From assembly GCA_048938025.1 (NCBI GenBank), contig JBHLMP010000005.1:1-64000 (forward strand): a stretch of 64,000 bases of DNA. Reading direction: 5' to 3'. The position numbers and the translations under genes were made by a program. Positions 5,084 to 40,553 of this stretch are shown here, one piece after another (the first letter of the stretch is position 1; each line of letters starts with the position of its first letter). This DNA comes from Promethearchaeota archaeon (GTDB taxonomy: Archaea > Asgardarchaeota > Lokiarchaeia > Sigyniarchaeales > SOKP01). The notes under the pieces were generated by a model. That model had not been told where the DNA came from. It ran no database searches and worked only from the letters and a program-made list of their open reading frames with translations.

Positions 5084-7423
5084 ATGAAAGCATCTATTTT
5101 GAAAAAATTAAATTTGATGATTGAAGAAGCTAATTCATTTAAAGATAAAAATAAATATCAAAAAGCAATCGACAAATTGCATGAAGCTATAGATTTTGTT
5201 AATGAAAAAGTTAAAGAACCTGAAGATAAAGAAACAGAAATAAATAATATTAAAAATGTAATCAATCAGACTTATTCTGTTGAAGTTAATGATTATATTC
5301 AACAAGCTATTCGTTTAGTCTCTCAACAAGAATTTGATAAAGCCTATGAAAATTTTCAAGAAGCATTAAAGGTAGCTGATAACATTGATGACCTAGATTT
5401 TAAGGAAACTGAAGTACAAGAAATTAATAAAATAAATAACGAGGCAAAACTGAAAGAATTAATAATAGATGCTGTAAATTTAAGAGAAAGTAAAAATTTT
5501 GATGATGCAGTTGAAACTTTCAATAAAGGATTAATTATTGCTGAGGAAATTTATGAAGGCATCCCTAAAATTGAAGAACAAGATAAAATTAAGGCTGAAA
5601 TTGATCAAACTTGTTCAACTCAAATAAAATTAATTCTTGAAAAGGGAAACCAGTTGAAACTAACTGGTAGAAGTGAAGATGCCATAAAAGAATTTGAGAA
5701 AGCTTTAAAACTCACTGATAATTTTTACAATTCTGAGCAAAAGAATAAGGAAATTACTAATATAAAAAATTTAATTAATCTAATTTATTCTAATAAGATT
5801 AAACCCATTGTTGATAAAACCAGGGAATTAGTGACTCAAAATAATATTAGTAGTGCAATTTCAGAATCAAAAAATGCTTTAGACATCGCAAATAGAATGT
5901 ATGATTCTGATTTAAAAAACCTTGAAATAAGTATAATCGCTGAAATCATAAATCCTTTCTATATTGAGAAAGTCAACCCAATAATAGAAAAAGGAAAGAA
6001 AATAACTCAACAAGATAAATTTGAGGAATCTACAACAAAAATAAATGAAGCTGTGAAAATTTTTAAAGAAGCTTTAGATGGGGCTAATTCAATGATTCCA
6101 GATATAAAAAAAGACCAAGAAATAAAAAATATTAGTGATCTAATCAACAATACCTGTTTAGCAGGAATTAATTTAATTAAAGAAAATTCAGTAAATAACA
6201 TAATGCAAAAAAAATATGAAGATGCTGTGAGTCAATTATATTCTGCAATAAGTATTGCTAAAATTATGACCTATCCAGAGGAAGAAAATGAAGAAATTGA
6301 AAATTTAAAGAATTTAGTCAATAAAGTGTATTCTGCCCAAGTAAAAGAAGTTCTAACCAGGGGAAATAAACTGGAGAATGAAGATGAATATGAGGAAGCT
6401 ATAACAGTTTACAATAAAGCCTTGGATATAACGAATAAAATGTATCTCACAGACGAGATGGAAAAGGAGGTAGGAGAGATTAAAGGTCTAATTTATCAAA
6501 CAGAGATAAAACAACTAGTAGGTAAGGGTGGTTTAGCAGAAACGCAGCAACTTAAAGAAAAAGAGATCGAAAAACTTAAAAAAAGATTAGATTACGCTAA
6601 CTCAATTGAAGATGAGAAACGTAGAATCGAAGAAATGAGTAAAATAAAAAAATTGATAGACGAGGTTCACTCTGATGAAATTAGACTTTTAATTGAACAA
6701 GGAAATCAGTTAGCTAAACAATTTAAATGGGAAGATGCTTTCAAATTTTATGAAAGAGCTCTTAAAGTAAATGAGTTAATGGAAGAACCTGATATGCAAA
6801 ATAAAAATTTAATTAGAGAACGATATAAAACGGAATTAGTTAATAAAACTAAGCAAAATTTAAGAAAAAATCCCGATATAGCAATTGAATCCTGCAATAG
6901 AGCAACTGAATTAGATGAAAACTATGTAGAGGCATATTATCATCTTGGTCTTGCCTATAATAATAAAAGGCGCTATGATGCTGCGATTCAGAATTTTAAC
7001 AAAGCTGTGAGATTAAATCCTAAACATTCTGAATCCTGGAATAACATGGGACTTGCTTATGAAGCTAAAAATGAATTGGATAGTTCCATTGATTCATATA
7101 AAAAAGCCGTTGAAATTGACCCTAATTATTCATTAGCATATTTTAATATGGCTAATGTATATAAACTTAAAAAAGAATTTGATTTAGCCATCAGTAATTA
7201 TAGAAAAGCGACTGAAATAGATCAAGAGTTTGCCAAAGCATGGTTTTTCTTGGGTTATGCTTACTTTGATATAAAAGATTACAATATGGGTATTCAACAC
7301 ATTGAAAAAGCTATTAATTTAAGCCCAGATTTGGGTGTTGAGGTAAGTTCTGATATTAAAGAATTAAAAAACTTAATAGATAAATTAGAATCAAACTTAT
7401 CTGAAAAATTTATTAATAGATAA
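5084..7423 (+). CDS. tetratricopeptide repeat protein with N-terminal ~58-aa helical repeats
   Basis: C-terminal canonical TPRs (AYYHLGLAY..AIQNFNKAVRLNP, SWNNMGLAY, AYFNMANVY, AWFFLGYAY); N-terminal A..A...K..EI..I...IN..Y repeats. Confidence 0.85.
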   Translation: MKASILKKLNLMIEEANSFKDKNKYQKAIDKLHEAIDFVNEKVKEPEDKETEINNIKNVINQTYSVEVNDYIQQAIRLVSQQEFDKAYENFQEALKVADNIDDLDFKETEVQEINKINNEAKLKELIIDAVNLRESKNFDDAVETFNKGLIIAEEIYEGIPKIEEQDKIKAEIDQTCSTQIKLILEKGNQLKLTGRSEDAIKEFEKALKLTDNFYNSEQKNKEITNIKNLINLIYSNKIKPIVDKTRELVTQNNISSAISESKNALDIANRMYDSDLKNLEISIIAEIINPFYIEKVNPIIEKGKKITQQDKFEESTTKINEAVKIFKEALDGANSMIPDIKKDQEIKNISDLINNTCLAGINLIKENSVNNIMQKKYEDAVSQLYSAISIAKIMTYPEEENEEIENLKNLVNKVYSAQVKEVLTRGNKLENEDEYEEAITVYNKALDITNKMYLTDEMEKEVGEIKGLIYQTEIKQLVGKGGLAETQQLKEKEIEKLKKRLDYANSIEDEKRRIEEMSKIKKLIDEVHSDEIRLLIEQGNQLAKQFKWEDAFKFYERALKVNELMEEPDMQNKNLIRERYKTELVNKTKQNLRKNPDIAIESCNRATELDENYVEAYYHLGLAYNNKRRYDAAIQNFNKAVRLNPKHSESWNNMGLAYEAKNELDSSIDSYKKAVEIDPNYSLAYFNMANVYKLKKEFDLAISNYRKATEIDQEFAKAWFFLGYAYFDIKDYNMGIQHIEKAINLSPDLGVEVSSDIKELKNLIDKLESNLSEKFINR

Positions 7424-29938: not shown

Positions 29939-30047
29939 CTTAGCGTTTTCTCTATTTCGACTAATTTATTTAAAATATTATAAATATTTGATATAATACA
30001 ATAATTAATGATAAATATTCTTAAATTTTAAATAATTAAAATTTAAT

Positions 30048-30458
30048 ATGCCAAAAACATTTCCATTGAATATTAAAGGATTTAATCCATTTGGGGATTT
30101 AATTGGTTTGAATTTTACACAATTCGAGAAAGGATATTCTCAATGTGTTTTGGAAGCTAATGAAAAGTTATTTAATCCACATAAAGTATTACATGGTGGT
30201 GTAATTTACTCAATGGCAGACACTGGTATGGGAGCCGCACTTTTTTTACATTTAGAAAAAAACGAATTATGCGCTACTATAGAAATCAAAATTATCTATT
30301 TTAAATCAATTAAATCTGGAAGTGTTACATGTAATACAAAAGTGATTCACGTGGGTAGAAAAATTGCCACATTAGAATCTGAAATTTTAAACAATAACCA
30401 ACTTGTGGCTAAGGCAATTGGAACATATTCCATCTTTAAAATCAAAAATAAACCTTAA
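30048..30458 (+). CDS. PaaI family (hotdog-fold) thioesterase
   Basis: NPHKVLHGGVIYSMADT, TIEIKI.YF. Confidence 0.9.
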   Translation: MPKTFPLNIKGFNPFGDLIGLNFTQFEKGYSQCVLEANEKLFNPHKVLHGGVIYSMADTGMGAALFLHLEKNELCATIEIKIIYFKSIKSGSVTCNTKVIHVGRKIATLESEILNNNQLVAKAIGTYSIFKIKNKP

Positions 30459-30477
30459 ATTATGAAAAAAAATTAAA

Positions 30478-30846
30478 TTAAAACCATTGAGTTGCATCTG
30501 CTTCTAAAACTAAATCATTTAGAGTCGCAGCACCCACGATTTTTACACCTGGAATCAAATCTACTTTTTCCCAACCCAGCATTCTCTTTGATGCCTCACA
30601 TACTAAGATTTCAATACCAGATTCCAGTGTTTGATCAATCATCTCTTTCACAGTTGGAAAATTACCTAATTTTATTCTATCTGCCTCTCCTGGTTTTAAT
30701 ATTCTTAATCCTGTTCCTAAATAATATACCGTAGCTTTAAGATTCATAGCCTTAGCTGTCTGTGCTAACACTAATGGAGAATATTGACGTTCGGGATCGT
30801 CACTTGTTTGTACATACAAAATATATTTTTCTTCGATTTTACTCAA
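30478..30846 (-). CDS. DsrE family protein (stand-alone)
   Basis: PLVLAQTA, YYLGTG, GIEILVCEAS, VGAATL. Confidence 0.8.
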   Translation of the reverse strand: MSKIEEKYILYVQTSDDPERQYSPLVLAQTAKAMNLKATVYYLGTGLRILKPGEADRIKLGNFPTVKEMIDQTLESGIEILVCEASKRMLGWEKVDLIPGVKIVGAATLNDLVLEADATQWF

Positions 30847-30888
30847 CCTCCTCTTTTTATTATTTGTTTTAACTTCCTATATAATATG

Positions 30889-31146
30889 CTAAATTAAAAC
30901 TTCAAATATACTAACTCTTTTGTCTTTGTCATCTTTAAATTTCTTTATAAACCTAATTTGTTGAAGATTTTTTAAAGAGTATGCTACTGTGCGTTTTGGT
31001 AGGAGTGTTTTACTCAAAATTTGTTTTTGATTCAATGGTCCCCTTTGTTTTAATATATATAATATGAATTTACATGAGGGGGATAATGAGAATAAATCCA
31101 TTTTTTCTTCATAAGTATTAACAAAATATTTATCTTCAACAATCAT
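30889..31146 (-). CDS. small MarR-like winged-helix regulator
   Basis: LSPSCKFILYIL..GPL.QK.I...TLLPKRTVAYSL..L, DKR. Confidence 0.8.
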   Translation of the reverse strand: MIVEDKYFVNTYEEKMDLFSLSPSCKFILYILKQRGPLNQKQILSKTLLPKRTVAYSLKNLQQIRFIKKFKDDKDKRVSIFEVLI

Positions 31147-31291
31147 AAAAATGTGCTTAATACGATTTGAAAGATCTAAATTATTACTTAATTCATAAAA
31201 TGGAATAATCTTATTAAATATTTTGGTTAACTGGTAAATTTAAACGAACAATTCAGTTTTAGTTTCAAAATAAAGCTAGATTTTATATTAA

Positions 31292-31306
31292 GTTTCAATT
31301 TGAAAC
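31292..31306. promoter_or_regulatory. palindrome GTTTCA-ATT-TGAAAC
   Basis: Perfect 6-bp arms upstream of the small MarR-like gene; partial copy GTTTCAAAATAAAGC at 31262-31276. Confidence 0.4.
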
Positions 31307-31334
31307 GAATAAAATCTTATAAAAAATAAATCTC

Positions 31335-31898
31335 TTAAAAATTCCCACATCCGTCACATTTACCATCCAAGAAAGCCTCACAATCTCTACAGATATTTCC
31401 ACAATTAGATTCTCGACTTTCTTTACTAAAGAGGTTAAGTGGAAGAAATTTTGGTGTTTCTATATTAGAAATAAATATAATTTCAGAGTGTAATATCCCC
31501 TTTTTATTGGTAGGACCACAATAATTTATATACCTGTGTAAAACATCTATATTTTGTCCTACAATTCCCATAACTAAATTGTATTGACCCGTAATCTGTG
31601 CTAACAAAAAGACTCTTGGACATTCAGAATAAGCTTTAATGATGTTCTTTACTTCATCATAATTTTTCATTTCTAGAAGAATCAAGCAAGCCCGATAATT
31701 TAAAGCATTTATATTAATATTACCTTGTACTTTTAGTATCTCTGATTCCTCTAATTTTACAATCCTTTTTCTAACTCCAGCGTGGCTCATTATCTCTTGA
31801 TCAGGTTTAACTACTTTTTCACCTATACTGATTAAACTTTCACGACCTTTTGTAAATAAAGCATTAATGATTTGTTTATCGATATTATCTAATAGCAT
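31335..31898 (-). CDS. Lrp/AsnC family regulator with Cys-rich C-terminal tail
   Basis: LDNIDKQII, SHAGVRKRIVKLEE, CPRV...ITGQYNL; tail CGNICRDC...CDGC; ATG at 31898 lies about 24 nt from a TATA-like ttttataaaa. Confidence 0.85.
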   Translation of the reverse strand: MLLDNIDKQIINALFTKGRESLISIGEKVVKPDQEIMSHAGVRKRIVKLEESEILKVQGNININALNYRACLILLEMKNYDEVKNIIKAYSECPRVFLLAQITGQYNLVMGIVGQNIDVLHRYINYCGPTNKKGILHSEIIFISNIETPKFLPLNLFSKESRESNCGNICRDCEAFLDGKCDGCGNF

Positions 31899-31965
31899 AA
31901 TAATAAAAAAAGAAATCCTTTTATAAAAAAGTACTAAAATTGCTTTCATCATCAATTTTTTTAGG

Positions 31966-31978
31966 TGCAAATTTTGCC
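31966..31978. promoter_or_regulatory. Lrp-type operator copy 1 (TGCAAATTTTGCC)
   Basis: Near-palindrome upstream of the Lrp gene; one of five related sites. Confidence 0.6.
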
Positions 31979-32232
31979 TTTAACTATATAAATAATACTT
32001 GGAAGAATTTTCTTAAAGAATTTAGATTCAATTAAAATATTGAATTCGCCCTTAATAAAACTGTGGTTTTATTATTCCCTCTAATTTTGATTAAAAGATT
32101 GAATAAATCTCCTTTTCTCTTTCTTTTAAAACCTATTTCAATTAATCTTTTAAGACTTTATTAACTTCTTTTAAGAGAAAATGAACTCAATAAAGCAAAA
32201 TATAATAGCTTTTCTATATATTTTTAATTAGG

Positions 32233-32245
32233 TGCAATAATTGCA
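32233..32245. promoter_or_regulatory. Lrp-type operator copy 2 (TGCAATAATTGCA)
   Basis: Palindrome just upstream of TATA-like tattaaata (32251) of the Cys-rich membrane gene. Confidence 0.7.
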
Positions 32246-32318
32246 TATACTATTAAATAGATTTTTGTTAGAGTGACTCTATACACTTCAAAAACTAAAT
32301 ATTTAACAAGAAGGTAAG

Positions 32319-32921
32319 TTGACTAGTCAAATGGAAGAGAGATCTAATGAAACTTCTTTTGAAACTAAAGATTCAAAACCCAAAGCTAAATTGTATAAAA
32401 AATATTCATTTTTGAGAGTATCTATTTATGAAATTTCAACAATTCTCCATTATTTAATAGGAGGATTGGGATTAATTATAGGGTATGCATTTTTATGGTT
32501 GGGCTACCTATTTGGTTTAATTTATATTATTTTTGCATTTCTACAAATGTACATTCTTATGCCATTAACTGTGTGCCCAAATTGTGTGTATTACAGAATG
32601 GAAGGTTCACGCTGTGTATCAGGCTTAAATAAGATCTCACGAAAAATAGCAAAGGAAGGAAAACCTGAAGTTTTTCCAAAACGAGCAGAGGGAGTATTTT
32701 GCTACAATAATATATATATGGCTGCTTTATTTTTCCCAATCGTGGCATTAATCCCTGCTTTAATCTTAAATTTTTCTCTATTGTTGTTATTAATATTTTT
32801 GATAGTTTTGGGCTTGCTGGTCTTTCGTTTTTTTGTAATTTTTCCTAAGATAGCATGTTTGCACTGTAACGCAAAATTTACATGCCCTATCGGTGAAAAA
32901 ATTGGCGTTCGAGATAAATGA
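32319..32921 (+). CDS. 4-TM membrane protein with two Cys clusters, hypothetical
   Basis: TM pairs each followed by CPNC..C and CLHC...C; ATG at 32331 is an alternative start. Confidence 0.75.
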   Translation: MTSQMEERSNETSFETKDSKPKAKLYKKYSFLRVSIYEISTILHYLIGGLGLIIGYAFLWLGYLFGLIYIIFAFLQMYILMPLTVCPNCVYYRMEGSRCVSGLNKISRKIAKEGKPEVFPKRAEGVFCYNNIYMAALFFPIVALIPALILNFSLLLLLIFLIVLGLLVFRFFVIFPKIACLHCNAKFTCPIGEKIGVRDK

Positions 32922-33007
32922 TGCGAACAATATTTAATAATCACCAATAGAGATTTCACTCTTAATAAAAATCAGAATATAATTATTTCCTTCCTCTCTT
33001 ATTCTTT

Positions 33008-33958
33008 CTAATCCATGGAATAATGTTCTGGTTCTGGATGTAGTTTATTAATAAACCTATAATTAAAAATATCTTGTATTTTTAGATTTTTTTTTATATA
33101 TCCCAAATTATAAAGAGTCTTTACGAATTTCATTGTTGCTCTTATGTAGCCCTCTGAGAGAGCAATACAATATTTTGGGGATATTTTCAGAACAGCCTCA
33201 GCATAATTTTTATCAATTATTTTAAATGATTTTACAATTTTCTCTGCTGCGACTGCTGGTGATTCTCGAAGCAGATTTGATGCATTTTTATGATGGGTGA
33301 GAAATTTTAAAATTAATTCAGGATTGTTTTGAATGAGTTTTTTATGGACAAATATTCCATAGCTAGGATTATTTGGCCATAGCTCTTTAGCTTCGATAAT
33401 TAAATGAGATTCTAAAATTGTTGATGTAAATACAGCTAACGCAGGAGTTCCAACACCTGCTTCTAAAAGACCTTCTCTCATATCCAAAGCTATGAATTCT
33501 GCTTGCTCATAGTTCTTGATCTGAATTTCCTCTAACAAGTTGTATTTTTCTAAATAAAAATTTAATATAACATCATGAATAGAACCTTTACTCGGAACTC
33601 CTATTGTTTTTCCTTTAAACTGGGAAAAGACCCTATTTAAATCATTATCTAATTGTTGTTGTGTGTTGTATACTCTTTTAGCAACTACAATTGTTCCCTC
33701 AACATGTCCTCCAGCGACACATATGATTGGAACACTTTCAGCAATTCCTATTATAGCAGGAGGTAAACCCATATAACCGATATCTAGTTTATTTTCCTTG
33801 AATGCTTTAACCATAGCAGGTCCGGTTCCAAAAAGAACCCAATTTATATCTGCCTTTAAATCTTTGTTTAAATCTTCAGATTCCATCAAAATATAATTAG
33901 TATGATATGCAGTTGAAAGGTGTCCTATATTTAATCTATTTTTTTTAATATAAATCAC
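33008..33958 (-). CDS. SsuA/NMT1-THI5-like substrate-binding-fold protein without signal peptide
   Basis: F.TGPAM..AF...LDIGYMGLPPAI, GGHVEG, KGKTIGVP..GSIHD; no N-terminal hydrophobic anchor. Confidence 0.75.
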   Translation of the reverse strand: MIYIKKNRLNIGHLSTAYHTNYILMESEDLNKDLKADINWVLFGTGPAMVKAFKENKLDIGYMGLPPAIIGIAESVPIICVAGGHVEGTIVVAKRVYNTQQQLDNDLNRVFSQFKGKTIGVPSKGSIHDVILNFYLEKYNLLEEIQIKNYEQAEFIALDMREGLLEAGVGTPALAVFTSTILESHLIIEAKELWPNNPSYGIFVHKKLIQNNPELILKFLTHHKNASNLLRESPAVAAEKIVKSFKIIDKNYAEAVLKISPKYCIALSEGYIRATMKFVKTLYNLGYIKKNLKIQDIFNYRFINKLHPEPEHYSMD

Positions 33959-33979
33959 CTTTTTGAGTACCTGATATTC

Positions 33980-33992
33980 TGCAAAAATTGCA
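33980..33992. promoter_or_regulatory. Lrp-type operator copy 3 (TGCAAAAATTGCA)
   Basis: Palindrome in the divergent intergenic region between the SBP-like and SAMP genes. Confidence 0.7.
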
Positions 33993-34082
33993 CTAATATT
34001 TAACTATTATAAACTAAATAAATAAATGCTATTTTTATTGACATAATATAGACACTTGTTATAAATTAAAATTAAAACACTA

Positions 34083-34382
34083 ATGATTTCCGCATTGATA
34101 AATATAAAAATCTTATTCTTTTCTTTATTGGCAGATAAATTTGGTAAAGATGAATTCACTTTAAATGTTGAACATGTTATAACTTTAAGAGATTTGCTAA
34201 ATCAACTGAGTTCTTTACTTGGAAGAGAATTTGAGGAGATGAATATTGTATCTGAGGATAAATTAAATAAATACGTAATTATAGGTTTAAATGGGAGAGA
34301 TATTCGACAATTTAATGGTTTAGATACTATTATTAAAGATAATGATGTGCTATCTTTTCTACCAGCTATTGCAGGTGGATAA
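34083..34382 (+). CDS. MoaD/ThiS/SAMP ubiquitin-like sulfur carrier
   Basis: Beta-grasp pattern, LNGRDI...GLDT.IKDND..SFLPAIAGG ending in Gly-Gly. Confidence 0.9.
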   Translation: MISALINIKILFFSLLADKFGKDEFTLNVEHVITLRDLLNQLSSLLGREFEEMNIVSEDKLNKYVIIGLNGRDIRQFNGLDTIIKDNDVLSFLPAIAGG

Positions 34383-34406
34383 TGAACTTTTTTTTTTATA
34401 TTTAGA

Positions 34407-34419
34407 TGAAAAAATTGCA
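34407..34419. promoter_or_regulatory. Lrp-type operator copy 4 (TGAAAAAATTGCA)
   Basis: One mismatch to copy 3; upstream of cysE. Confidence 0.6.
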
Positions 34420-34483
34420 CTTAATTATTTATTTCACTAAATTATTTTCTCCAAGATAGAATATTAAAAATGGATAACTGACA

Positions 34484-35323
34484 ATGGAAGATTTTTTAAA
34501 CTGTCTAAATTGTGGCAAGACTTTAGGGGATAAAGAGAGAAATCATTATAATTTTTGTGCTGAATGTATTTTAAAATTAGACTTTCGATTAGAAGAGCTA
34601 AATCGTGAAGAGATAGATCAAAATTTACAAAAAATTTTAAATTTCTTTGTCTCTGATGTTAGTGCTGCCTTTAATAAGGATCCAGCTGCTCAATCTCTAT
34701 TGGAAGTTTTAACAAGTTATCCGGGAATTAAAGCAATTTTGTTACATCGTATTGCTCATTTTTTCTGGAAAATTAAAATGCCATTTGTGCCAAGGTATCT
34801 TTCAGAAATTACCCGGGAACTTACTGGAATAGAAATTCATCCTGGCGCTGAAATTGGAAAGGATTTTTTTATTGATCATGGAGGCGGTGTTGTTATTGGA
34901 GAGACTGCAAAGATTGGTGATAATGTAACTATTTATCAAGGCGTGGTCTTAGGAGGAACAATGACAGATCCAATCAAGAGACACCCAACCTTAGGAAACA
35001 ATATTGTTGTCGGCACAGGAGCAAAGTTATTAGGACCAATAACAATTGGAGACAATGTGAGAATTGGAGCAAATTCTGTAGTTGTTCAAGATATACCTCC
35101 TAATTCGGTAGTAGTCGGTGTTCCTGGAAAAATTATATCTCGTGATGGAAAAAAAATTAAAAAAATCGATCTTTCACATGGAGATTTACCCGATCCAATG
35201 TCAATAACTCTTTCTTCAATAAATCGAAGAATAGAATTCCTTGAAAAGCATTTAAAAATTAAATCGGATATAAAAAGAAATGATATTGAAATATATTTTG
35301 GTATCAATGGAGGAGGTATTTAA
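34484..35323 (+). CDS. cysE: serine O-acetyltransferase with N-terminal zinc-finger-like extension
   Basis: DPAA, YPG..A...HRIAH, TGIEIHPGAEIG, FIDHG.GVVIGET, KRHPTLG, IGANSVV, DLPDP; N-terminal CLNC...CAEC. Confidence 0.92.
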   Translation: MEDFLNCLNCGKTLGDKERNHYNFCAECILKLDFRLEELNREEIDQNLQKILNFFVSDVSAAFNKDPAAQSLLEVLTSYPGIKAILLHRIAHFFWKIKMPFVPRYLSEITRELTGIEIHPGAEIGKDFFIDHGGGVVIGETAKIGDNVTIYQGVVLGGTMTDPIKRHPTLGNNIVVGTGAKLLGPITIGDNVRIGANSVVVQDIPPNSVVVGVPGKIISRDGKKIKKIDLSHGDLPDPMSITLSSINRRIEFLEKHLKIKSDIKRNDIEIYFGINGGGI

Positions 35324-35354
35324 TTAATACAATATAGAGAGGAGGTGAAAAGAC

Positions 35355-36284
35355 TTGGGAAGAATATTTAATAATATTATTGAAACCATTGGGAATACAC
35401 CGTTAGTAAGACTTAATAGGATTACTGAAAGAATTGAACCAAATATTTTTGTAAAAATTGAGGGTTTCAACCCTGGCGCAAGTGTTAAGGACCGAATTTG
35501 TATGTCGATGATTGATGCTGCTGAAAAAGCGAAAATCATTAAAAAGAATACAATAATTGTCGAACCCACCTCAGGTAATACAGGTATTGGTTTAGCATTA
35601 GTCTGTGCTGCTAAAGGGTACAAATTAATTCTTACAATGCCAGATAGTATGACAATTGAAAGAAGAAAAATATTAAAAGCATATGGTGCGGAATTAGTAT
35701 TAACTCCTGCTGATAAAGGAATGAAGGGAGCCATTGAAAAGGCTGAAGATTTAGCGAAAGACAACGATAAAGTTTTTATTCCTCAACAGTTTAAAAATGA
35801 AGCAAATCCTGAAATTCATCGTAAAACAACCGCAGAAGAGATATATAATGATTTAGATGGAAAAATTGACGGATTTGTGTCAGGAATAGGCACAGGTGGA
35901 ACTATAACAGGAGTAGGGGAAATACTTAAACAGAGAATTGGCAATCATGTGAAAATATATGCTGTAGAACCAAAAGATTCTCCTGTATTGTCAGGAGGTG
36001 AACCAGGATCACATAAAATCCAAGGAATTGGTGCCGGATTTGTACCTGATGTATTGAATACTGAAATTTATGATGATGTAATTCAAGTTAATTATGAGGA
36101 TGCTGTACAAACATCAAGAAAATTAGCTAAATTAGAAGGGATTTTTGTAGGGATTTCTGCGGGAGCAGCAGCGTGGGCAGGAATTTACATAGTTTCAAAA
36201 GAATTTAAAAAAGGAGATAATTTAGTTATAATTTTACCAGATACAGGAGAAAGATATTTATCTACAGATCTATTTGAAACATGA
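35355..36284 (+). CDS. cysK: cysteine synthase A (O-acetylserine sulfhydrylase)
   Basis: IGNTPLV, NPGASVKDR (PLP Lys), PTSGNTG, GTGGT, HKIQGIG, PDTGERYLST. Confidence 0.95.
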   Translation: MGRIFNNIIETIGNTPLVRLNRITERIEPNIFVKIEGFNPGASVKDRICMSMIDAAEKAKIIKKNTIIVEPTSGNTGIGLALVCAAKGYKLILTMPDSMTIERRKILKAYGAELVLTPADKGMKGAIEKAEDLAKDNDKVFIPQQFKNEANPEIHRKTTAEEIYNDLDGKIDGFVSGIGTGGTITGVGEILKQRIGNHVKIYAVEPKDSPVLSGGEPGSHKIQGIGAGFVPDVLNTEIYDDVIQVNYEDAVQTSRKLAKLEGIFVGISAGAAAWAGIYIVSKEFKKGDNLVIILPDTGERYLSTDLFET

Positions 36285-36299
36285 TTTAAATTTTGATTG

Positions 36300-36569
36300 T
36301 TAAAGTTTCTTTAGTTTCATAAGCCAAACATCTTTTTCTGAATCTAATTCCTTTATTTCTAATAATTCCGCTAAAGATTGTCGTTTACAATTTTCAGGAA
36401 TATTTTTAAGAGCAGCAGGAAAGTCTAAAAGAACCTCTAAAATATCCCCTCTATCAAGTTCTTCAAGTTTTAATTTTGTGTAAACAAATGTCATTGGACA
36501 TACTTTCCCCCTTATGTCTAAATACTTCATAATTTCTTTTTCAGATCCTCTTAAAATGTTTATTGACAA
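36300..36569 (-). CDS. tusA: TusA family sulfurtransferase
   Basis: LDIRGKVCPMTFVYTKLKLEEL..GDILEVLLD. Confidence 0.85.
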   Translation of the reverse strand: MSINILRGSEKEIMKYLDIRGKVCPMTFVYTKLKLEELDRGDILEVLLDFPAALKNIPENCKRQSLAELLEIKELDSEKDVWLMKLKKL

Positions 36570-37366
36570 ACGTCATCAATCCCATATTGTATAATTTCAA
36601 CTATATCTTTTGCATCATCCCCACATGCGATGCATCTTTCATTCCTATGAAGATCTATAAAATTAAAGGTATTTCTTAAAAGATCTATATATAAGATTTT
36701 ATTTTTTATTAAATCCCCGATACCTAGAATATATTTTAATGCTTCATTTGCTTCTATGCAGCCTAAAATTCCTGGTACAAATCCGATTACTCCAGCTTCG
36801 GAACATGACATTCCAGTTGGTCCTTCAATTATATCACCAAAAATGCATCGATAGCACGCAGTTTTTTCTTCAGGAATTACTGTCATAATTTGTCCATGAA
36901 ATCTTAAAACACCTGCTATTGTAAATGGTATTTTTAAATAAATGCATGTATCATTAACTAGCATCTTAGTTGGAAAATTATCAGACCCTTCTATAACAAA
37001 ATCGGAGTCCTTAAGAATTTCTTTAGCATTCTTAGCTGTAATTTTTTCATTTATGATTTCAATAATGGAATCAGGATTTAGCATATTTAACTTTTCAATT
37101 GCACTTTCTGTTTTCTTCCTATCGATATCTTTTGTGAAATGTAGAATCTGTCTATGCAAATTAGATGGCTCTACTTTATCATAGTCAATTAGTTTTAAAT
37201 GCCCAATTCCGGCTGCTGTTAGATAATATGCAACAGGGGATCCAAGAGCTCCTAGACCAACTAAAGAGATTTTTGACTTTAATAATTTCTTTTGACCTAT
37301 ACCCCCAACTTCTTTTAGGACGATTTGACGAGAATATCTCTTAATTTGCTCTTCAGTTAAATTCAT
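36560..37366 (-). CDS. moeB: MoeB/ThiF/UbaA E1-like adenylyltransferase
   Basis: RYSRQ, GQKKL, GLGALGS, D.D.VE.SNLHRQ, DNF, CYRC, SCSEAG (catalytic Cys), CIAC. Confidence 0.9.
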   Translation of the reverse strand: MNLTEEQIKRYSRQIVLKEVGGIGQKKLLKSKISLVGLGALGSPVAYYLTAAGIGHLKLIDYDKVEPSNLHRQILHFTKDIDRKKTESAIEKLNMLNPDSIIEIINEKITAKNAKEILKDSDFVIEGSDNFPTKMLVNDTCIYLKIPFTIAGVLRFHGQIMTVIPEEKTACYRCIFGDIIEGPTGMSCSEAGVIGFVPGILGCIEANEALKYILGIGDLIKNKILYIDLLRNTFNFIDLHRNERCIACGDDAKDIVEIIQYGIDDVCQ

Positions 37367-37427
37367 TTTTTACCATTTAAATTACAATAACTAACATAGA
37401 AATATCTTTAGTTTATATAAAATAAGA

Positions 37428-37440
37428 TGCAAAAATTGCA
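37428..37440. promoter_or_regulatory. Lrp-type operator copy 5 (TGCAAAAATTGCA)
   Basis: Extends to ATGCAAAAATTGCAT; just upstream of TATA-like tttatataa (37412-37420) of moeB-tusA. Confidence 0.7.
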
Positions 37441-37470
37441 TTGAAATCTACTATAAGGTCTAAGAGGATC

Positions 37471-38016
37471 TTATTTACGAATTAATATTCCAATTTTTCC
37501 ACCTATTTTTTGAATAGAATTACCCTCAGCACCAATCAATACTTCTTCTTTAATTAAATTGATGATAGCTCGAGTTATCATGCTTAACGGATATTGTTGT
37601 ATTTCTTTAATGCCAATTAGCTCATCAATAGTTAAAGCTTCTCCAGGCACTATCATTGAAATTATTGCTCTTTTTACGTGATCTAAATTACTCACATTTT
37701 CTATTAATTCACGTGTTCCTCCCTTTTTGCTACTTTGTTTAAGTTCAGTTAAGGTAGATGTTAATAATTTAACTTGTTCTTCAAGTTTAGTAATACGTAT
37801 TTCTAATTCTCTTTTGGAACTTCTATTTATTTTACTTGGTTCTTCCTTTTCAGCTAAGAATTTAATTACAAGTTTTTCAAGGTGTTCTTTTGGAATATTA
37901 GCTTTTTTTATTTGTTGTATTTTTTCTGTTTTAGTGCTACTTTTCTTTAAGTTAATATTACATTCTTTTGCTAATTTTTCCAGGTAGTGCACTGTGAGAT
38001 CATTTAGATCTGCCAT
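37471..38016 (-). CDS. hypothetical protein: SAP/Rho-N-like helix, coiled coil, winged-helix-like C-terminus
   Basis: LNDLTV..L..LAK...I....TK.E.I; heptad region; LTIDEL....I..L...L. Confidence 0.6.
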   Translation of the reverse strand: MADLNDLTVHYLEKLAKECNINLKKSSTKTEKIQQIKKANIPKEHLEKLVIKFLAEKEEPSKINRSSKRELEIRITKLEEQVKLLTSTLTELKQSSKKGGTRELIENVSNLDHVKRAIISMIVPGEALTIDELIGIKEIQQYPLSMITRAIINLIKEEVLIGAEGNSIQKIGGKIGILIRK

Positions 38017-38144
38017 ATCTAACCTCAATTGAAGAAATTTTTATGTAGTTTTAAAATCTTTTAAGAGGAATATTAATTAATTAAAAATTGATACAGCAAT
38101 TATTAAAAATATCATTATTAACCTCAAAATCAGAGTTGATTTAA

Positions 38145-38612
38145 ATTAATATAATTGAATTAGATGAATCAAATATCCCTGAAATTCTAGAACTATGGAA
38201 GGAACTTATTGATTTTCAAGCAAATTTGGATCTATTCTTTATTAGAAGAGAGGATGCGCATCTAAATTATGAATCATATATAAAAGAGTTAATGAAATCA
38301 GGAGATACAAAAATCTTTGGAGCATTAGAAGATAAGAATTTACTAGGTTTTATTGTAGCAAAATTAAGTTATTATCCTCCTATATATTTACAAGAAAAGT
38401 ATGGTTCAATTGATGATATTATAATCACTTCATCTTATAGGAGAATGGGAGTAGGTAGTATGTTATTGGAGAGAGCTTTTGGCTGGTTTAATTCTCGAGG
38501 ATTAATACGCGTTGAGTTAAATGTAGTAAAACAGAATCAAGGGGCATACTCCTTTTATTTAAAACACGGTTTTAAGGATTATATGCATAAATTATTTCTT
38601 GAAATTAAATAA
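38145..38612 (+). CDS. GNAT acetyltransferase; probable ATT start
   Basis: YRRMGVGSMLL, N..A..FY.K.GF; frame extends 27 codons upstream of TTG 38226 giving NIIELDESNIPEILELWKEL. Confidence 0.8.
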   Translation: MNIIELDESNIPEILELWKELIDFQANLDLFFIRREDAHLNYESYIKELMKSGDTKIFGALEDKNLLGFIVAKLSYYPPIYLQEKYGSIDDIIITSSYRRMGVGSMLLERAFGWFNSRGLIRVELNVVKQNQGAYSFYLKHGFKDYMHKLFLEIK

Positions 38613-38684
38613 TTTCTTTTCTTTCAAAAGTAACTTTAAATATTTGTTAATATTGCCATAATAAATATTATTAAGGGGATAGAT

Positions 38685-40553
38685 ATGGAATTTGGTTATA
38701 CAGGGAATATCCTTAGAGTCAATTTATCTAAAGGAGATATATTTATTGAACATCCTGATGAAATTTTTTACCGCCGATATATCGGAGGTGAAGGTTTCGT
38801 AGCATACTATCTTTTAAAAGAAGTCCTGACAGGAATTGATCCATTAAGTTCTGAAAATAAATTGATTTTTGCTACAGGTCCATTAACTGGATTTGCAATT
38901 CCGGGAACAGGTAGAAATAGTGTAGGTGCAAAGTCTCCTTTAACAGGAGGATTTGGTGAAGCGGAAGTTGGTGGTCATTGGGGAGCCGAGTTAAAGCACG
39001 CAGGATTTGATGCAATAATAGTAGAGGGAAAAGCAAAAAAGCCTGTCTATTTATGGATTAAAGATGGAGAAATAGAAATAAAGGATGCAACTCATCTCTG
39101 GGGTAAAATTACTGGTGAAGCCGAGGTAATTATTAAAGAAGAATTAGGTGATAAATTTATCCGCGTCGCTCAAATTGGCCCTGGAGGAGAACGTTTAGTT
39201 CGTTATGCATGTGTTATTAATGATTTAAGAAATGCTGCAGGGCGTGGTGGAATGGGTGCTGTAATGGGATCTAAAAATCTAAAAGCTGTGGCTGTTAGAG
39301 GTCATAAAAGACTTGAAGTCAATAATAAAGAGAAATTGAGAGGACTAATAAAAGAGTACCATGATGTAGCGTACAAACCATATGCAAGTTATTTTGAGCA
39401 TGGTACAGGAGGGGGAATAATGGAGATGTTTGCGGAATCCGGAAACCTTCCAACAAGAAATTTTAGGGATGGTGATTTTTTGGGGGCAAAAGCTTTAGAT
39501 CCCAGTGTTATGAAGGAAGTAATTAACCTTAAAATGGATGCTTGCTATGCGTGTTCACTTCGGTGTAAAAAAGTTGTACAAATTGGAGAACCTTGGAATG
39601 TTGATCCAATATATGGAGGTCCTGAATATGAATCTATAGCTGCTTTTGGATCGAATTGTGGAGTAGATGATATAAAAGCTGTTTGTAAAGCAAATGAGCT
39701 CTGTAACAAATATTCATTAGATACAATATCTACTGGCGTTTCGATCGGATTTGGGATGGAATGTTATGAGAATGGAATATTGACCGATAAAGACACTAAT
39801 GGACTATCATTAAATTTTGGAAATAAAGAAGCAATGCTAGAGATGGTAAAAATGATTGCTAACCGAGAAGGTTTAGGAGATATTTTAGCTGATGGTGTCA
39901 AAAGAGCAGCTGAAAAAATACAAAATGGAGCAAAAGACTATGCTATGCATGTTAAAGGACAGGAGATTCCTATGCATGAACCACGTTTGAAGCAAGGAAT
40001 GGGTGTTGGTTATTCTGTTTCACCAACTGGTGCTGAACATATGGCAAATATTCATGATACTTCTTTTACTAGTGAAAGGGCAATGAGTCCTCATAATGCT
40101 ATAGGTTTATTAGAACCTCTTGAAACGAACGATTTGAGTGCGAAAAAAATTCGTATTTTAACTTATTATAGTAATTGGCAAAATGCATCTAATGCTATAT
40201 TAGTATGTTATTTTTTACCATGGGACTATAATGATATACCAGAAATTCTTAAAGCTGTAACTGGTTGGAATATAAATACATGGGAGATTATGAAATTAGG
40301 AGAACGGATTACAACTATGGCTAGAGCATTTAATATTAGGGAGGGTTTTTCTAAAGATGATGACTGGCTTCCTAAACGATTTTTCCAACCTACTACTTCA
40401 GGTGCTTTATCTAAAACTGCAATAAATCCCGATGAATTCAAGAATGCTCGATCTACCTATTACAGAATGATGGGCTGGGATGATAATGGAATTCCAACTA
40501 AAGCAAAACTAGAGGAATTAGATATCGAGTGGGTTTCTAAAATGCATCCATAA
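38685..40553 (+). CDS. aor: aldehyde ferredoxin oxidoreductase (tungsten/molybdopterin AOR family)
   Basis: ILRVNLS, KSPLTG, GRGGMGAVMGSKNLKA, CYACSLRC, GPEYE, DTIS, YY..MGWD. Confidence 0.93.
   Translation: MEFGYTGNILRVNLSKGDIFIEHPDEIFYRRYIGGEGFVAYYLLKEVLTGIDPLSSENKLIFATGPLTGFAIPGTGRNSVGAKSPLTGGFGEAEVGGHWGAELKHAGFDAIIVEGKAKKPVYLWIKDGEIEIKDATHLWGKITGEAEVIIKEELGDKFIRVAQIGPGGERLVRYACVINDLRNAAGRGGMGAVMGSKNLKAVAVRGHKRLEVNNKEKLRGLIKEYHDVAYKPYASYFEHGTGGGIMEMFAESGNLPTRNFRDGDFLGAKALDPSVMKEVINLKMDACYACSLRCKKVVQIGEPWNVDPIYGGPEYESIAAFGSNCGVDDIKAVCKANELCNKYSLDTISTGVSIGFGMECYENGILTDKDTNGLSLNFGNKEAMLEMVKMIANREGLGDILADGVKRAAEKIQNGAKDYAMHVKGQEIPMHEPRLKQGMGVGYSVSPTGAEHMANIHDTSFTSERAMSPHNAIGLLEPLETNDLSAKKIRILTYYSNWQNASNAILVCYFLPWDYNDIPEILKAVTGWNINTWEIMKLGERITTMARAFNIREGFSKDDDWLPKRFFQPTTSGALSKTAINPDEFKNARSTYYRMMGWDDNGIPTKAKLEELDIEWVSKMHP

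Follow-up and report, generated by a model that had tools for sequence, protein, structure and literature searches.

The closest described systems to the element that we report here are the binding sites of Lrp-type transcription factors in other archaea. Ss-LrpB of Sulfolobus solfataricus binds boxes with the consensus TTGCAAAATTTGCAA (PMC1802622). Its optimum in SELEX (ligands evolved systematically through exponential enrichment) is TTGCAA[AAT/ATT]TTGCAA, and the general form given for sites of the feast/famine regulatory proteins (FFRPs) is abcdeWWWedcba (PMC2715240). A pattern of contacts between these proteins and DNA has been published: an Arg at residue 39 goes with a G at base c, and at residue 36 a Ser goes with G or A, and a Thr with T, at base b (PMC2715240). 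For the archaeal Lrp activators Ptr2, LysM and Ss-LrpB, a review gives a site just upstream of the transcription factor B recognition element (BRE) and the TATA box as typical (PMC2995911). Here, we analyse 64 kb of DNA from a Promethearchaeota archaeon (positions 1 to 64,000 of contig JBHLMP010000005.1, assembly GCA_048938025.1), called the window in the following, in which five copies of a 13-bp palindrome, box B, stand in front of the genes of a sulfur-carrier and cysteine cluster. We searched for box B with the 13-bp pattern TGCAAWWWTTGCA; its full form is R-TGCAAWWWTTGCA-Y.

Box B shares with the Ss-LrpB boxes the 13-bp core TGCAA-WWW-TTGCA, in which two TGCA units flank five bases (TGCA-N5-TGCA) and the centre is A/T. 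Both also have a dimer site close to the promoter, which for box B is a prediction. On the other hand, the outer positions are T...A in the Ss-LrpB boxes and R...Y in box B, and the Ss-LrpB targets named in the review are a pyruvate-ferredoxin oxidoreductase operon and permease genes (PMC2995911), whereas here we find sulfur-carrier and cysteine genes. The Lrp encoded in the cluster differs from Ss-LrpB at four of six contact positions, with L, S, H, A/T, G, R where Ss-LrpB has L, P, I, S, T, R. Ss-LrpB is an Lrp; on comparative evidence, the binder of box B may not be one. Among the Pyrococcus proteins, FL10 has the optimum GTTCGA[AAT/ATT]TCGAAC (PMC2715240), with G-T-T...A in common with a second palindrome of our cluster, P2 (box B and P2 both have the form abcdeWWWedcba), and a Thr at aligned position 36, as the local Lrp mostly has. 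From FL11 the local Lrp differs by a 6-residue loop insertion and a cysteine-rich (Cys) tail. The likeness to Ptr2 and LysM lies in the position of the site, although one box (33980) is placed over the expected NMT1 transcript start instead.

Dedicated regulators of sulfur or cysteine metabolism, with cysteines as a possible sensor, include SurR of the Thermococcales, which has a CxxC switch, and the bacterial CymR and CysB. They resemble the present case in function only, since their protein families and DNA motifs are different. A literature search, with supplementary files outside its reach, returned no paper on this motif, on the regulon or on a Cys-tailed Lrp. A local regulator with its operator is a known kind of system, and ours would be a new case of it, in a phylum for which hardly any regulons have been described; less usual here are the Cys-tailed Lrp subfamily and the layout with two palindromes.

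Distribution and conservation of box B

The window comes from contig C52 of an assembly of 3,523,697 bp in 88 contigs (G000 in the following). Allowing one mismatch, it contains six matches to box B against 1.27 +/- 1.16 expected, and none of 100 dinucleotide-preserving shuffles reached this number. An earlier note, made from the sequence alone, had listed five of these boxes as intergenic, one ahead of each transcription unit, together with a weak sixth site at 31932-31944, and had seen no further full copy in the other intergenic regions. All of this was borne out: the coordinates and sequences are exact (Table 1), the weak site is present, the Ss-LrpB consensus given in the note is correct, and the scan adds only a match at 2906, inside an open reading frame (ORF).

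In the whole assembly we find seven exact matches and 100 sites with at most one mismatch, of which 14 are intergenic according to a crude ORF mask (85.6% of the assembly is coding). Five of the 14 belong to this cluster, three to a second copy of it on contig C58, and six are scattered elsewhere. In all, 8 of the 14 sites fall in the two cluster copies; in terms of density, 6 sites in about 0.5 Mb of other intergenic DNA compare with 5 in less than 1 kb here. A weight matrix trained on 50 unique sites from other genomes only, and then run on G000, gives the same picture: the top four matches all fall within the two cluster copies, and so do 8 of the 9 intergenic matches that score at least 17.4 bits. 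In the resulting frequencies only A or T occurs at the three central positions and the outer positions are R...Y, so that box B has the form of a 13-bp palindrome with three central A/T pairs, which is the FFRP format.

Outside both clusters there is a single strong intergenic match (C73:1921-1933, TGCAATTTTTACA, 17.4 bits). It coincides with the beginning of a 642-aa frame for a membrane protein, which continues beyond the contig end, and has a 189-aa gene of unknown function 100 nt downstream of it.

To follow the box through evolution, we used 43 related loci from Promethearchaeota and other Asgard metagenome-assembled genomes. Together with the window and C58 they gave the counts reported here, which refer to the 150 bp upstream of each ortholog and to at most one mismatch. 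The phylogenetic footprinting proposed in the earlier note shows the box to be kept at moeB in 15 of 19 loci and at cysE in 11 of 16; if up to two mismatches are allowed, these numbers rise to 18/19 and 14/16. Its centre is at -68 in 11 of the moeB loci, and at -65 to -71 in 12 of the cysE loci. The box is also found at the membrane-protein gene (3 of 4 loci), the NMT1-like gene (8 of 23, with the centre at -25 to -28) and the gene for the small sulfur carrier SAMP (4 of 16). The operon-internal genes cysK (0/16), tusA (0/18) and DsrE (0/8) do not have it, and for all other genes the count is 20 of 555. Looking at the 43 related loci as a whole, we see 48 sites in 46.0 kb of intergenic DNA flanking cluster genes, 8 in 52.2 kb of other intergenic DNA and 26 in 577.6 kb of coding DNA. 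Within the box, the half nearer to the promoter, TTGCA(C/T), hardly varies, and the distal half is variable (TGCAA, TGTAA, TGAAA or GGTAA). Both position and sequence of the box are kept at orthologous promoters, where the flanks have diverged.

Could the boxes have arisen by chance in A+T-rich DNA, or be parts of a repeat, a mobile element or an RNA structure? The genome has 29% G+C and the centre of the box consists of A and T only, as such an origin would have it. However, the shuffles, the much lower intergenic density elsewhere and the conserved promoter positions within diverged flanks all speak against it, and we regard this explanation as practically negligible. As for an RNA element, a search of 30000-39000 against Rfam (E up to 0.1) gave no match, and the repeats around the boxes reach only T-rich promoter flanks with 71-83% identity, without forming a longer element.

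Counting exact boxes in the whole genomes of 41 relatives gave no discrimination, as coding matches predominate. A control with the reversed pattern was near zero, which we suspect to be due to CpG scarcity.

In summary, the sequence comparisons support box B as a real, conserved cis-element that is essentially limited to this cluster and its second copy. The sulfur regulon postulated in the earlier note is supported as a local one, by enrichment and by conserved promoter positions.

Box B and the predicted promoters

We assigned TATA-like elements by eye from the sequence and by their conservation; of 17 sequencing runs listed as containing part of the window, none is an RNA run. A T-rich TATA-like element begins 5-7 nt beyond the box at the promoters of moeB, cysE and the membrane-protein gene, and at the distal promoter of Lrp; at moeB, for example, the order is TTGCA-tctta-TTTTATATAA. 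The claim that the boxes at 32233 and 37428 stand just upstream of such an element can thus be given a spacing and extended to cysE. The cysE box has cttaattatttattt on one side and, on the other, a T-run after the SAMP stop codon, which would be the terminator of the SAMP gene. At the place of the weak site in front of the Lrp gene, orthologous Lrp promoters have TTGYA and TTTTTAT.

The box between NMT1 and SAMP is arranged differently. Its centre is 28 nt from the NMT1 start and 97 nt from that of SAMP, upstream in both cases, and with respect to NMT1 a conserved TTATAA lies upstream of it. Unlike at moeB and cysE, the box thus comes after the TATA element, and therefore over the expected start of the NMT1 transcript.

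An activator-type position of the box at moeB, cysE and the membrane-protein gene is supported by this arrangement. A single dimer site that ends 5-7 bp upstream of TATA would activate by aiding the loading of the TATA-binding protein (TBP) and transcription factor B (TFB) at weak promoters. For the promoters with the box before TATA, activation seems to us somewhat more probable than repression. At NMT1, a protein bound over the transcript start would repress, or it could serve the divergent SAMP promoter; the NMT1 box suggests a dual role of the regulator.

Two palindromes and two candidate regulators

Two small regulators are encoded within the cluster and are inherited together with it, and both have to be considered as binders of box B. 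For the first, the Cys-tailed Lrp, we place the true ATG at 31898, and the aligned homologs all have 187 amino acids (aa). A profile search finds FL11/PH1519 as its best solved relative (E 4e-10, residues 2-142). The AlphaFold model, with a mean predicted local distance difference test score (pLDDT) of 65 and a predicted TM-score (pTM) of 0.40, consists of three helices and a beta-alpha-beta-beta-alpha-beta domain, and its top 40 matches to the PDB in Foldseek all belong to the Lrp/AsnC family. The 187-aa protein accordingly has an N-terminal helix-turn-helix (HTH) and a C-terminal RAM domain. It stays below the cut-offs of Pfam (HTH_AsnC-type, 21 bits against 27; AsnC_trans_reg, 14.6 against 25) and of its best NCBIfam match, LysM (41 bits against 180). 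Judged from these matches, it is a divergent Lrp/AsnC subfamily with an added Cys tail.

This tail reads C-x3-C-x2-C-x7-C-x2-C-G-N-F. Its five invariant cysteines occur in no matched structure, it is poorly modelled (pLDDT <50), and a match to DUF6171 is below the threshold (16.7 bits against 27). In all, seven cysteines (C93, C127, C166, C170, C173, C181 and C184) are invariant in 55 of 55 homologs, and the tail with the two further cysteines would be a plausible sensor. At E up to 1e-5 there are 256 relatives, nearly all with 187 aa. Those with a named source come from Asgard archaea, mostly Promethearchaeota, and are labelled as Lrp/AsnC regulators or hypothetical proteins; in the Atlas, the Lrp matched only generic clusters of archaeal Lrps with 177-204 aa.

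Paralogous Cys-tailed Lrps, 60-69% identical and with Ala at residue 43, form divergent pairs (loci L026-L034 and L053-L076). These pairs are flanked by cytochrome c maturation genes (CcmF/B/E-like) on one side, and by genes for the small and large subunits of a [NiFe]-hydrogenase and HdrC/B-like genes on the other. Frames of 360-380 aa (G016:C4:59087-59620, G014:C140, G023:C1:1284751) match the whole 187-aa Lrp with 38-46% identity and may be fused or duplicated forms of it.

The second candidate is the 85-aa winged-helix protein, which matches the MarR family PF01047 with 33 bits (cut-off 24.6) over residues 27-78. In NCBIfam it has matches to short winged-helix families (Lrs14, Sta1 and the N-terminus of MsvR), all below their cut-offs. 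Full-length MarR proteins have about 140-150 aa, with N- and C-terminal dimerisation helices; with its 85 residues, the local protein does not have this architecture. Its single Cys is not conserved and is a Ser in the C58 copy.

Between the Lrp and MarR-like genes we find the second palindrome, P2, which is perfect and of the form GTTTCA-AWT-TGAAAC, and it occurs in the same relative place in the second copy (C58:4447-4461). Its 13-bp core, with at most one mismatch, lies between Lrp and MarR-like genes, upstream of the latter, in 16 of 27 loci. P2 is also found upstream of 22 of the 31 Lrp genes with A, S or G at residue 43, and in the shared intergenic space of the divergent paralogous Lrp pairs. 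The exact 15-mer has 24 sites in 21 of the 154 genomes of the order; 19 of these 21 genomes carry the Lrp (against 55 of 154 overall), 17 carry the MarR-like gene, and 16 of the 24 sites adjoin one of the two genes. Furthermore, P2 is kept beside Lrp in four genomes in which we found no MarR-like gene, namely G155 (97% complete), G089 (94%), G022 (88%) and G100 (84%). For example, G155 has its Lrp gene immediately upstream of moeB, and a P2-like element separates the two; in G089 the Lrp gene is preceded by an exact P2 core, and in G022 P2 lies between an Lrp pair (L071, on the same contig as L034). As P2 stands beside Lrp in genomes without the MarR-like gene, it appears to go with the Lrp family, independently of the MarR-like protein.

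We also considered residue 43 of the Lrp, next to which the palindromes differ: 13 of the 24 Lrps with R or K have box B and none has P2, against 1 and 22 of the 31 with A, S or G, a covariation that is confounded twice, by P2 beside R/K-type Lrp genes upstream of the MarR-like gene and by divergent gene pairs that share one intergenic space. We therefore rejected it as evidence.

We also compared gene content. We distinguish a close set of genomes from the same genus, with moeB at least 76% identical, and a distant set with 63-67% moeB identity. Six genomes (G000, G014, G016, G015, G024 and G007) have the Lrp and the MarR-like gene next to each other, and all six have the box at moeB. In G017 and G011 the contiguous cluster, with the order MarR-like, P2, 286-aa gene, box, NMT1, SAMP, tusA, moeB, box, has no adjacent Lrp; the genomes do carry the MarR-like gene and paralogous Lrp pairs. 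Here the boxes are kept, both exact in G017 and with one mismatch each in G011. Where neither regulator was found (G006, in one contig, G008 and G021), TATA and leader are kept and the box is replaced, with at least three mismatches. Another genome in which neither was found, G010, does have the box at moeB; it is 83% complete, and the contig in question has 4 kb. In the distant set, G155, G089 and G068 (86% complete) carry an Lrp without a MarR-like gene, G002 and G019 carry neither, and none of the five has the box. Taken together, box B is present at moeB in all 8 genomes that have the MarR-like gene, in 0 of 3 with Lrp and without the MarR-like gene, and in 1 of 6 with neither. The decisive class, a MarR-like gene without Lrp, is represented among the genomes only by G001, where the gene has two stop codons and is a pseudogene. 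Note that five genomes without an adjacent MarR-like gene in the cluster all carry one elsewhere, and are hence uninformative.

We tentatively propose that the winged-helix protein binds box B and that the Cys-tailed Lrp family binds P2, an assignment on which we ourselves are nearly evenly divided. The reason for the former is that boxes are kept without an adjacent Lrp and that, G010 aside, none stands at moeB without a MarR-like gene. The earlier note had named the adjacent Cys-tailed Lrp as the binder, and in this form the claim is not supported: G017 and G011 keep their boxes without it, G155, G089 and G068 have an Lrp and no box at moeB, and it is a different palindrome, GTTTCAAWTTGAAAC, that follows the Lrp family.

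Several observations weigh against our proposal. Some Lrp of the family occurs in each genome that has box B, so that on the counts alone paralogous Lrps could serve the boxes of G017 and G011. The three genomes in which an Lrp stands alone are from a more distant clade, which may never have had the box; moreover, the genomes are related, several are incomplete, and the counts overstate their independence. In sequence, box B coincides with the core of the Ss-LrpB optimum and has the FFRP form, which, taken by itself, would point to an Lrp. It lies upstream of the Lrp gene itself in 9 of 24 loci with R or K at residue 43, as autoregulation would predict, and upstream of the MarR-like gene in 0 of 27. 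Finally, the winged-helix protein is without the usual MarR dimerisation helices.

Some of these observations fit a different reading, an extension of that in the earlier note, in which a dimer of the adjacent Lrp binds box B, autoregulates and activates the cluster, paralogs act in trans where it was lost, and P2 is the operator of the MarR-like protein. Apart from the core and format of the box, it draws on the Lrp/AsnC fold, established by the FL11/PH1519 profile match and the structural matches, on a box position like that of the Ptr2, LysM and Ss-LrpB activators, and on the paralogous Lrp pairs of G017 and G011. The paralogs with A, S or G at residue 43 have box B upstream in 0 of 30 cases, against the 9 of 24 just mentioned.

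The contact rules cut both ways. In a HMMER alignment, the local R43 falls on FFRP residue 39 and A/T40 on residue 36. The mapping is uncertain, since the alignment has to bridge a 6-residue insertion in the loop that precedes the recognition helix. Taken at face value, the Arg at this position (Lys in C58) would pair with the G at base c of box B. On the other hand, residue 36 is A or T and not the Ser that pairs with G at base b; it predicts a T there, and this rule would fit P2 (TTTCA) better than box B (TGCAA). In addition, the paralogs have Ala at the position of residue 39, and yet would have to read the same box. Together with the four genomes that keep P2 beside Lrp genes and gave no MarR-like gene in our searches, and with the three genomes that have Lrp and moeB and yet no box B, this makes binding of box B by the adjacent Lrp the less likely reading in our view, though still a serious one.

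Potentially, box B could also be read by a factor encoded elsewhere, or by a mixed complex of both neighbours, with the adjacent regulator genes being mere targets. Such factors can be named: a canonical AsnC-type gene (Pfam HTH_24/HTH_AsnC) lies between tusA and cysK in L036, L037 and L068, a 286-aa winged-helix/MerB-like gene has its own box in some related clusters, and box-like sites precede a CcmF-like gene in several of the loci with paralogous Lrps. However, the AsnC-type and MerB-like genes are both absent from the window, the box at moeB tracks the Lrp/MarR pair across genomes, and in G000 the regulon is limited to the two cluster copies, as one would expect for a locally encoded regulator. 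We consider this quite improbable.

Returning to the winged-helix protein as binder of box B, the explanation that we favour overall would be the following. A local transcription factor would have box B as its operator and govern the sulfur-carrier and cysteine cluster, with moeB-tusA, SAMP, cysE-cysK, the NMT1-like gene, the membrane protein and Lrp-MarR-DsrE as the controlled units. Because the Cys of the MarR-like protein is not conserved, any thiol or Fe-S sensor should be the Lrp, and this would suggest a cascade: with P2 before the MarR-like/DsrE unit, the Lrp would be the sensor of a first tier that acts on the winged-helix protein, and the latter would act on the cluster. As a whole, this two-tier circuit is a tentative model, and we lean slightly against all of its parts being right. 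A bolder version seems improbable to us. In it, the circuit is specific to Promethearchaeota, Lrps whose tail and two further invariant cysteines carry an Fe-S cluster or a thiol/persulfide switch read GTTTCAAWTTGAAAC, a minimal 85-aa activator reads TGCAAWWWTTGCA in front of the SAMP/MoeB/TusA/CysE/CysK pathway genes, and Asgard archaea would have in the Lrp family a general sensor of sulfur, iron or redox state, given that its paralogs lie between cytochrome c maturation and [NiFe]-hydrogenase/Hdr-like genes.

The gene cluster, its second copy and its meaning

The genes and DNA elements of the cluster are collected in Table 1. We read cysK as being co-transcribed with cysE.

Table 1. Genes, palindromes and TATA-like elements of the sulfur-carrier and cysteine cluster, in window coordinates
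Feature	Position	Strand	Remarks
DsrE-like sulfur-relay protein	30478..30846	-	downstream of the MarR-like gene
85-aa winged-helix protein (Pfam MarR)	30889..31146	-	second candidate regulator
P2 palindrome, GTTTCAAWTTGAAAC	31292..31306		between Lrp stop and MarR-like start; TATA-like run TTAATATAAAA after it
Cys-tailed Lrp/AsnC-type regulator, 187 aa	31335..31898	-	HTH and RAM-like domain
Weak box-like site, TACTAAAATTGCT	31932..31944	-	3 mismatches; followed directly by the Lrp-proximal TATA cttttttataaaagg (- strand)
Box B, TGCAAATTTTGCC	31966..31978		1 mismatch; centre 74 nt upstream of the Lrp ATG; matrix score 22.2 bits
TATA-like run, ttaactatataaat		+	after box 31966..31978
Box B, TGCAATAATTGCA	32233..32245		exact; 23.6 bits, best matrix match of the genome
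TATA-like element, tatactattaaata			after box 32233..32245; membrane-protein gene downstream
Membrane protein with Cys motifs	32319..32921	+	without family match
NMT1/SsuA-like binding-protein fold	33008..33958	-	
Box B, TGCAAAAATTGCA	33980..33992		exact; divergent NMT1/SAMP intergenic space
MoaD/SAMP-type small sulfur carrier	34083..34382	+	TIGR01687 above cut-off
Box B, TGAAAAAATTGCA	34407..34419		1 mismatch; centre 71 nt upstream of the cysE ATG
CysE, serine O-acetyltransferase	34484..35323	+	TIGR01172 above cut-off; N-terminal CxxC...CxxC extension
CysK, cysteine synthase	35355..36284	+	TIGR01139 above cut-off; without own box
TusA-like sulfurtransferase	36300..36569	-	
MoeB/UbaA-type E1 adenylyltransferase (ThiF family)	36560..37366	-	
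TATA-like element, TTTTATATAAA	37412..37422	-	moeB-tusA promoter; 5 nt downstream of the box; kept even in box-less genomes
Box B, TGCAAAAATTGCA	37428..37440		exact; centre 68 nt upstream of the moeB ATG

Some of the proteins have features of their own. The extension of CysE (window 34484-34580) reads MEDFLNCLNCGK...NFCAEC and has the look of a zinc ribbon, with the acetyltransferase domain beginning at about residue 57. The NMT1/SsuA-like homolog begins with VIYIKKNRLNIGH; since by eye it has neither a signal peptide nor a lipobox, it may be cytoplasmic, and no transporter genes adjoin it. The membrane protein (200 aa) carries the motifs CPNC...C...C and CLHC...C and is present in only four related loci; its gene is the one preceded by the best-scoring box of the genome.

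The second, diverged copy of the cluster, on the 7254-bp contig C58 of G000, comprises DsrE (85% identical to the window), the MarR-like protein (72%), Lrp (80%), the NMT1-like protein (68%), SAMP (40%) and the start of cysE (86%). Its boxes, at 5138, 6387 and 6724, occupy places that match those in the window. C58 may be a true paralog or come from a mis-binned relative; the contamination estimate of the assembly is 5.14%.

In some relatives (L024, that is, G007:C7, and L114/L115) the cluster has extra genes, each with its own box, for a flavin reductase-like protein, a DUF998 membrane protein and a 286-aa winged-helix and MerB-like protein. Regulon membership therefore varies between genomes.

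To our knowledge, hardly anything is known of how specific genes are regulated in Asgard archaea. The cluster is a compact system accessible to experiment, with five near-identical predicted operators, a second palindrome and two small regulators. The seven-cysteine Lrp subfamily is a candidate sensor and merits biochemical study. Finally, as the earlier note had argued, the shared and conserved boxes are independent evidence that these genes form one system. They tie moeB-tusA, SAMP, cysE-cysK, the NMT1-like gene and the membrane protein into one unit, and this supports a sulfur-carrier route to cysteine.

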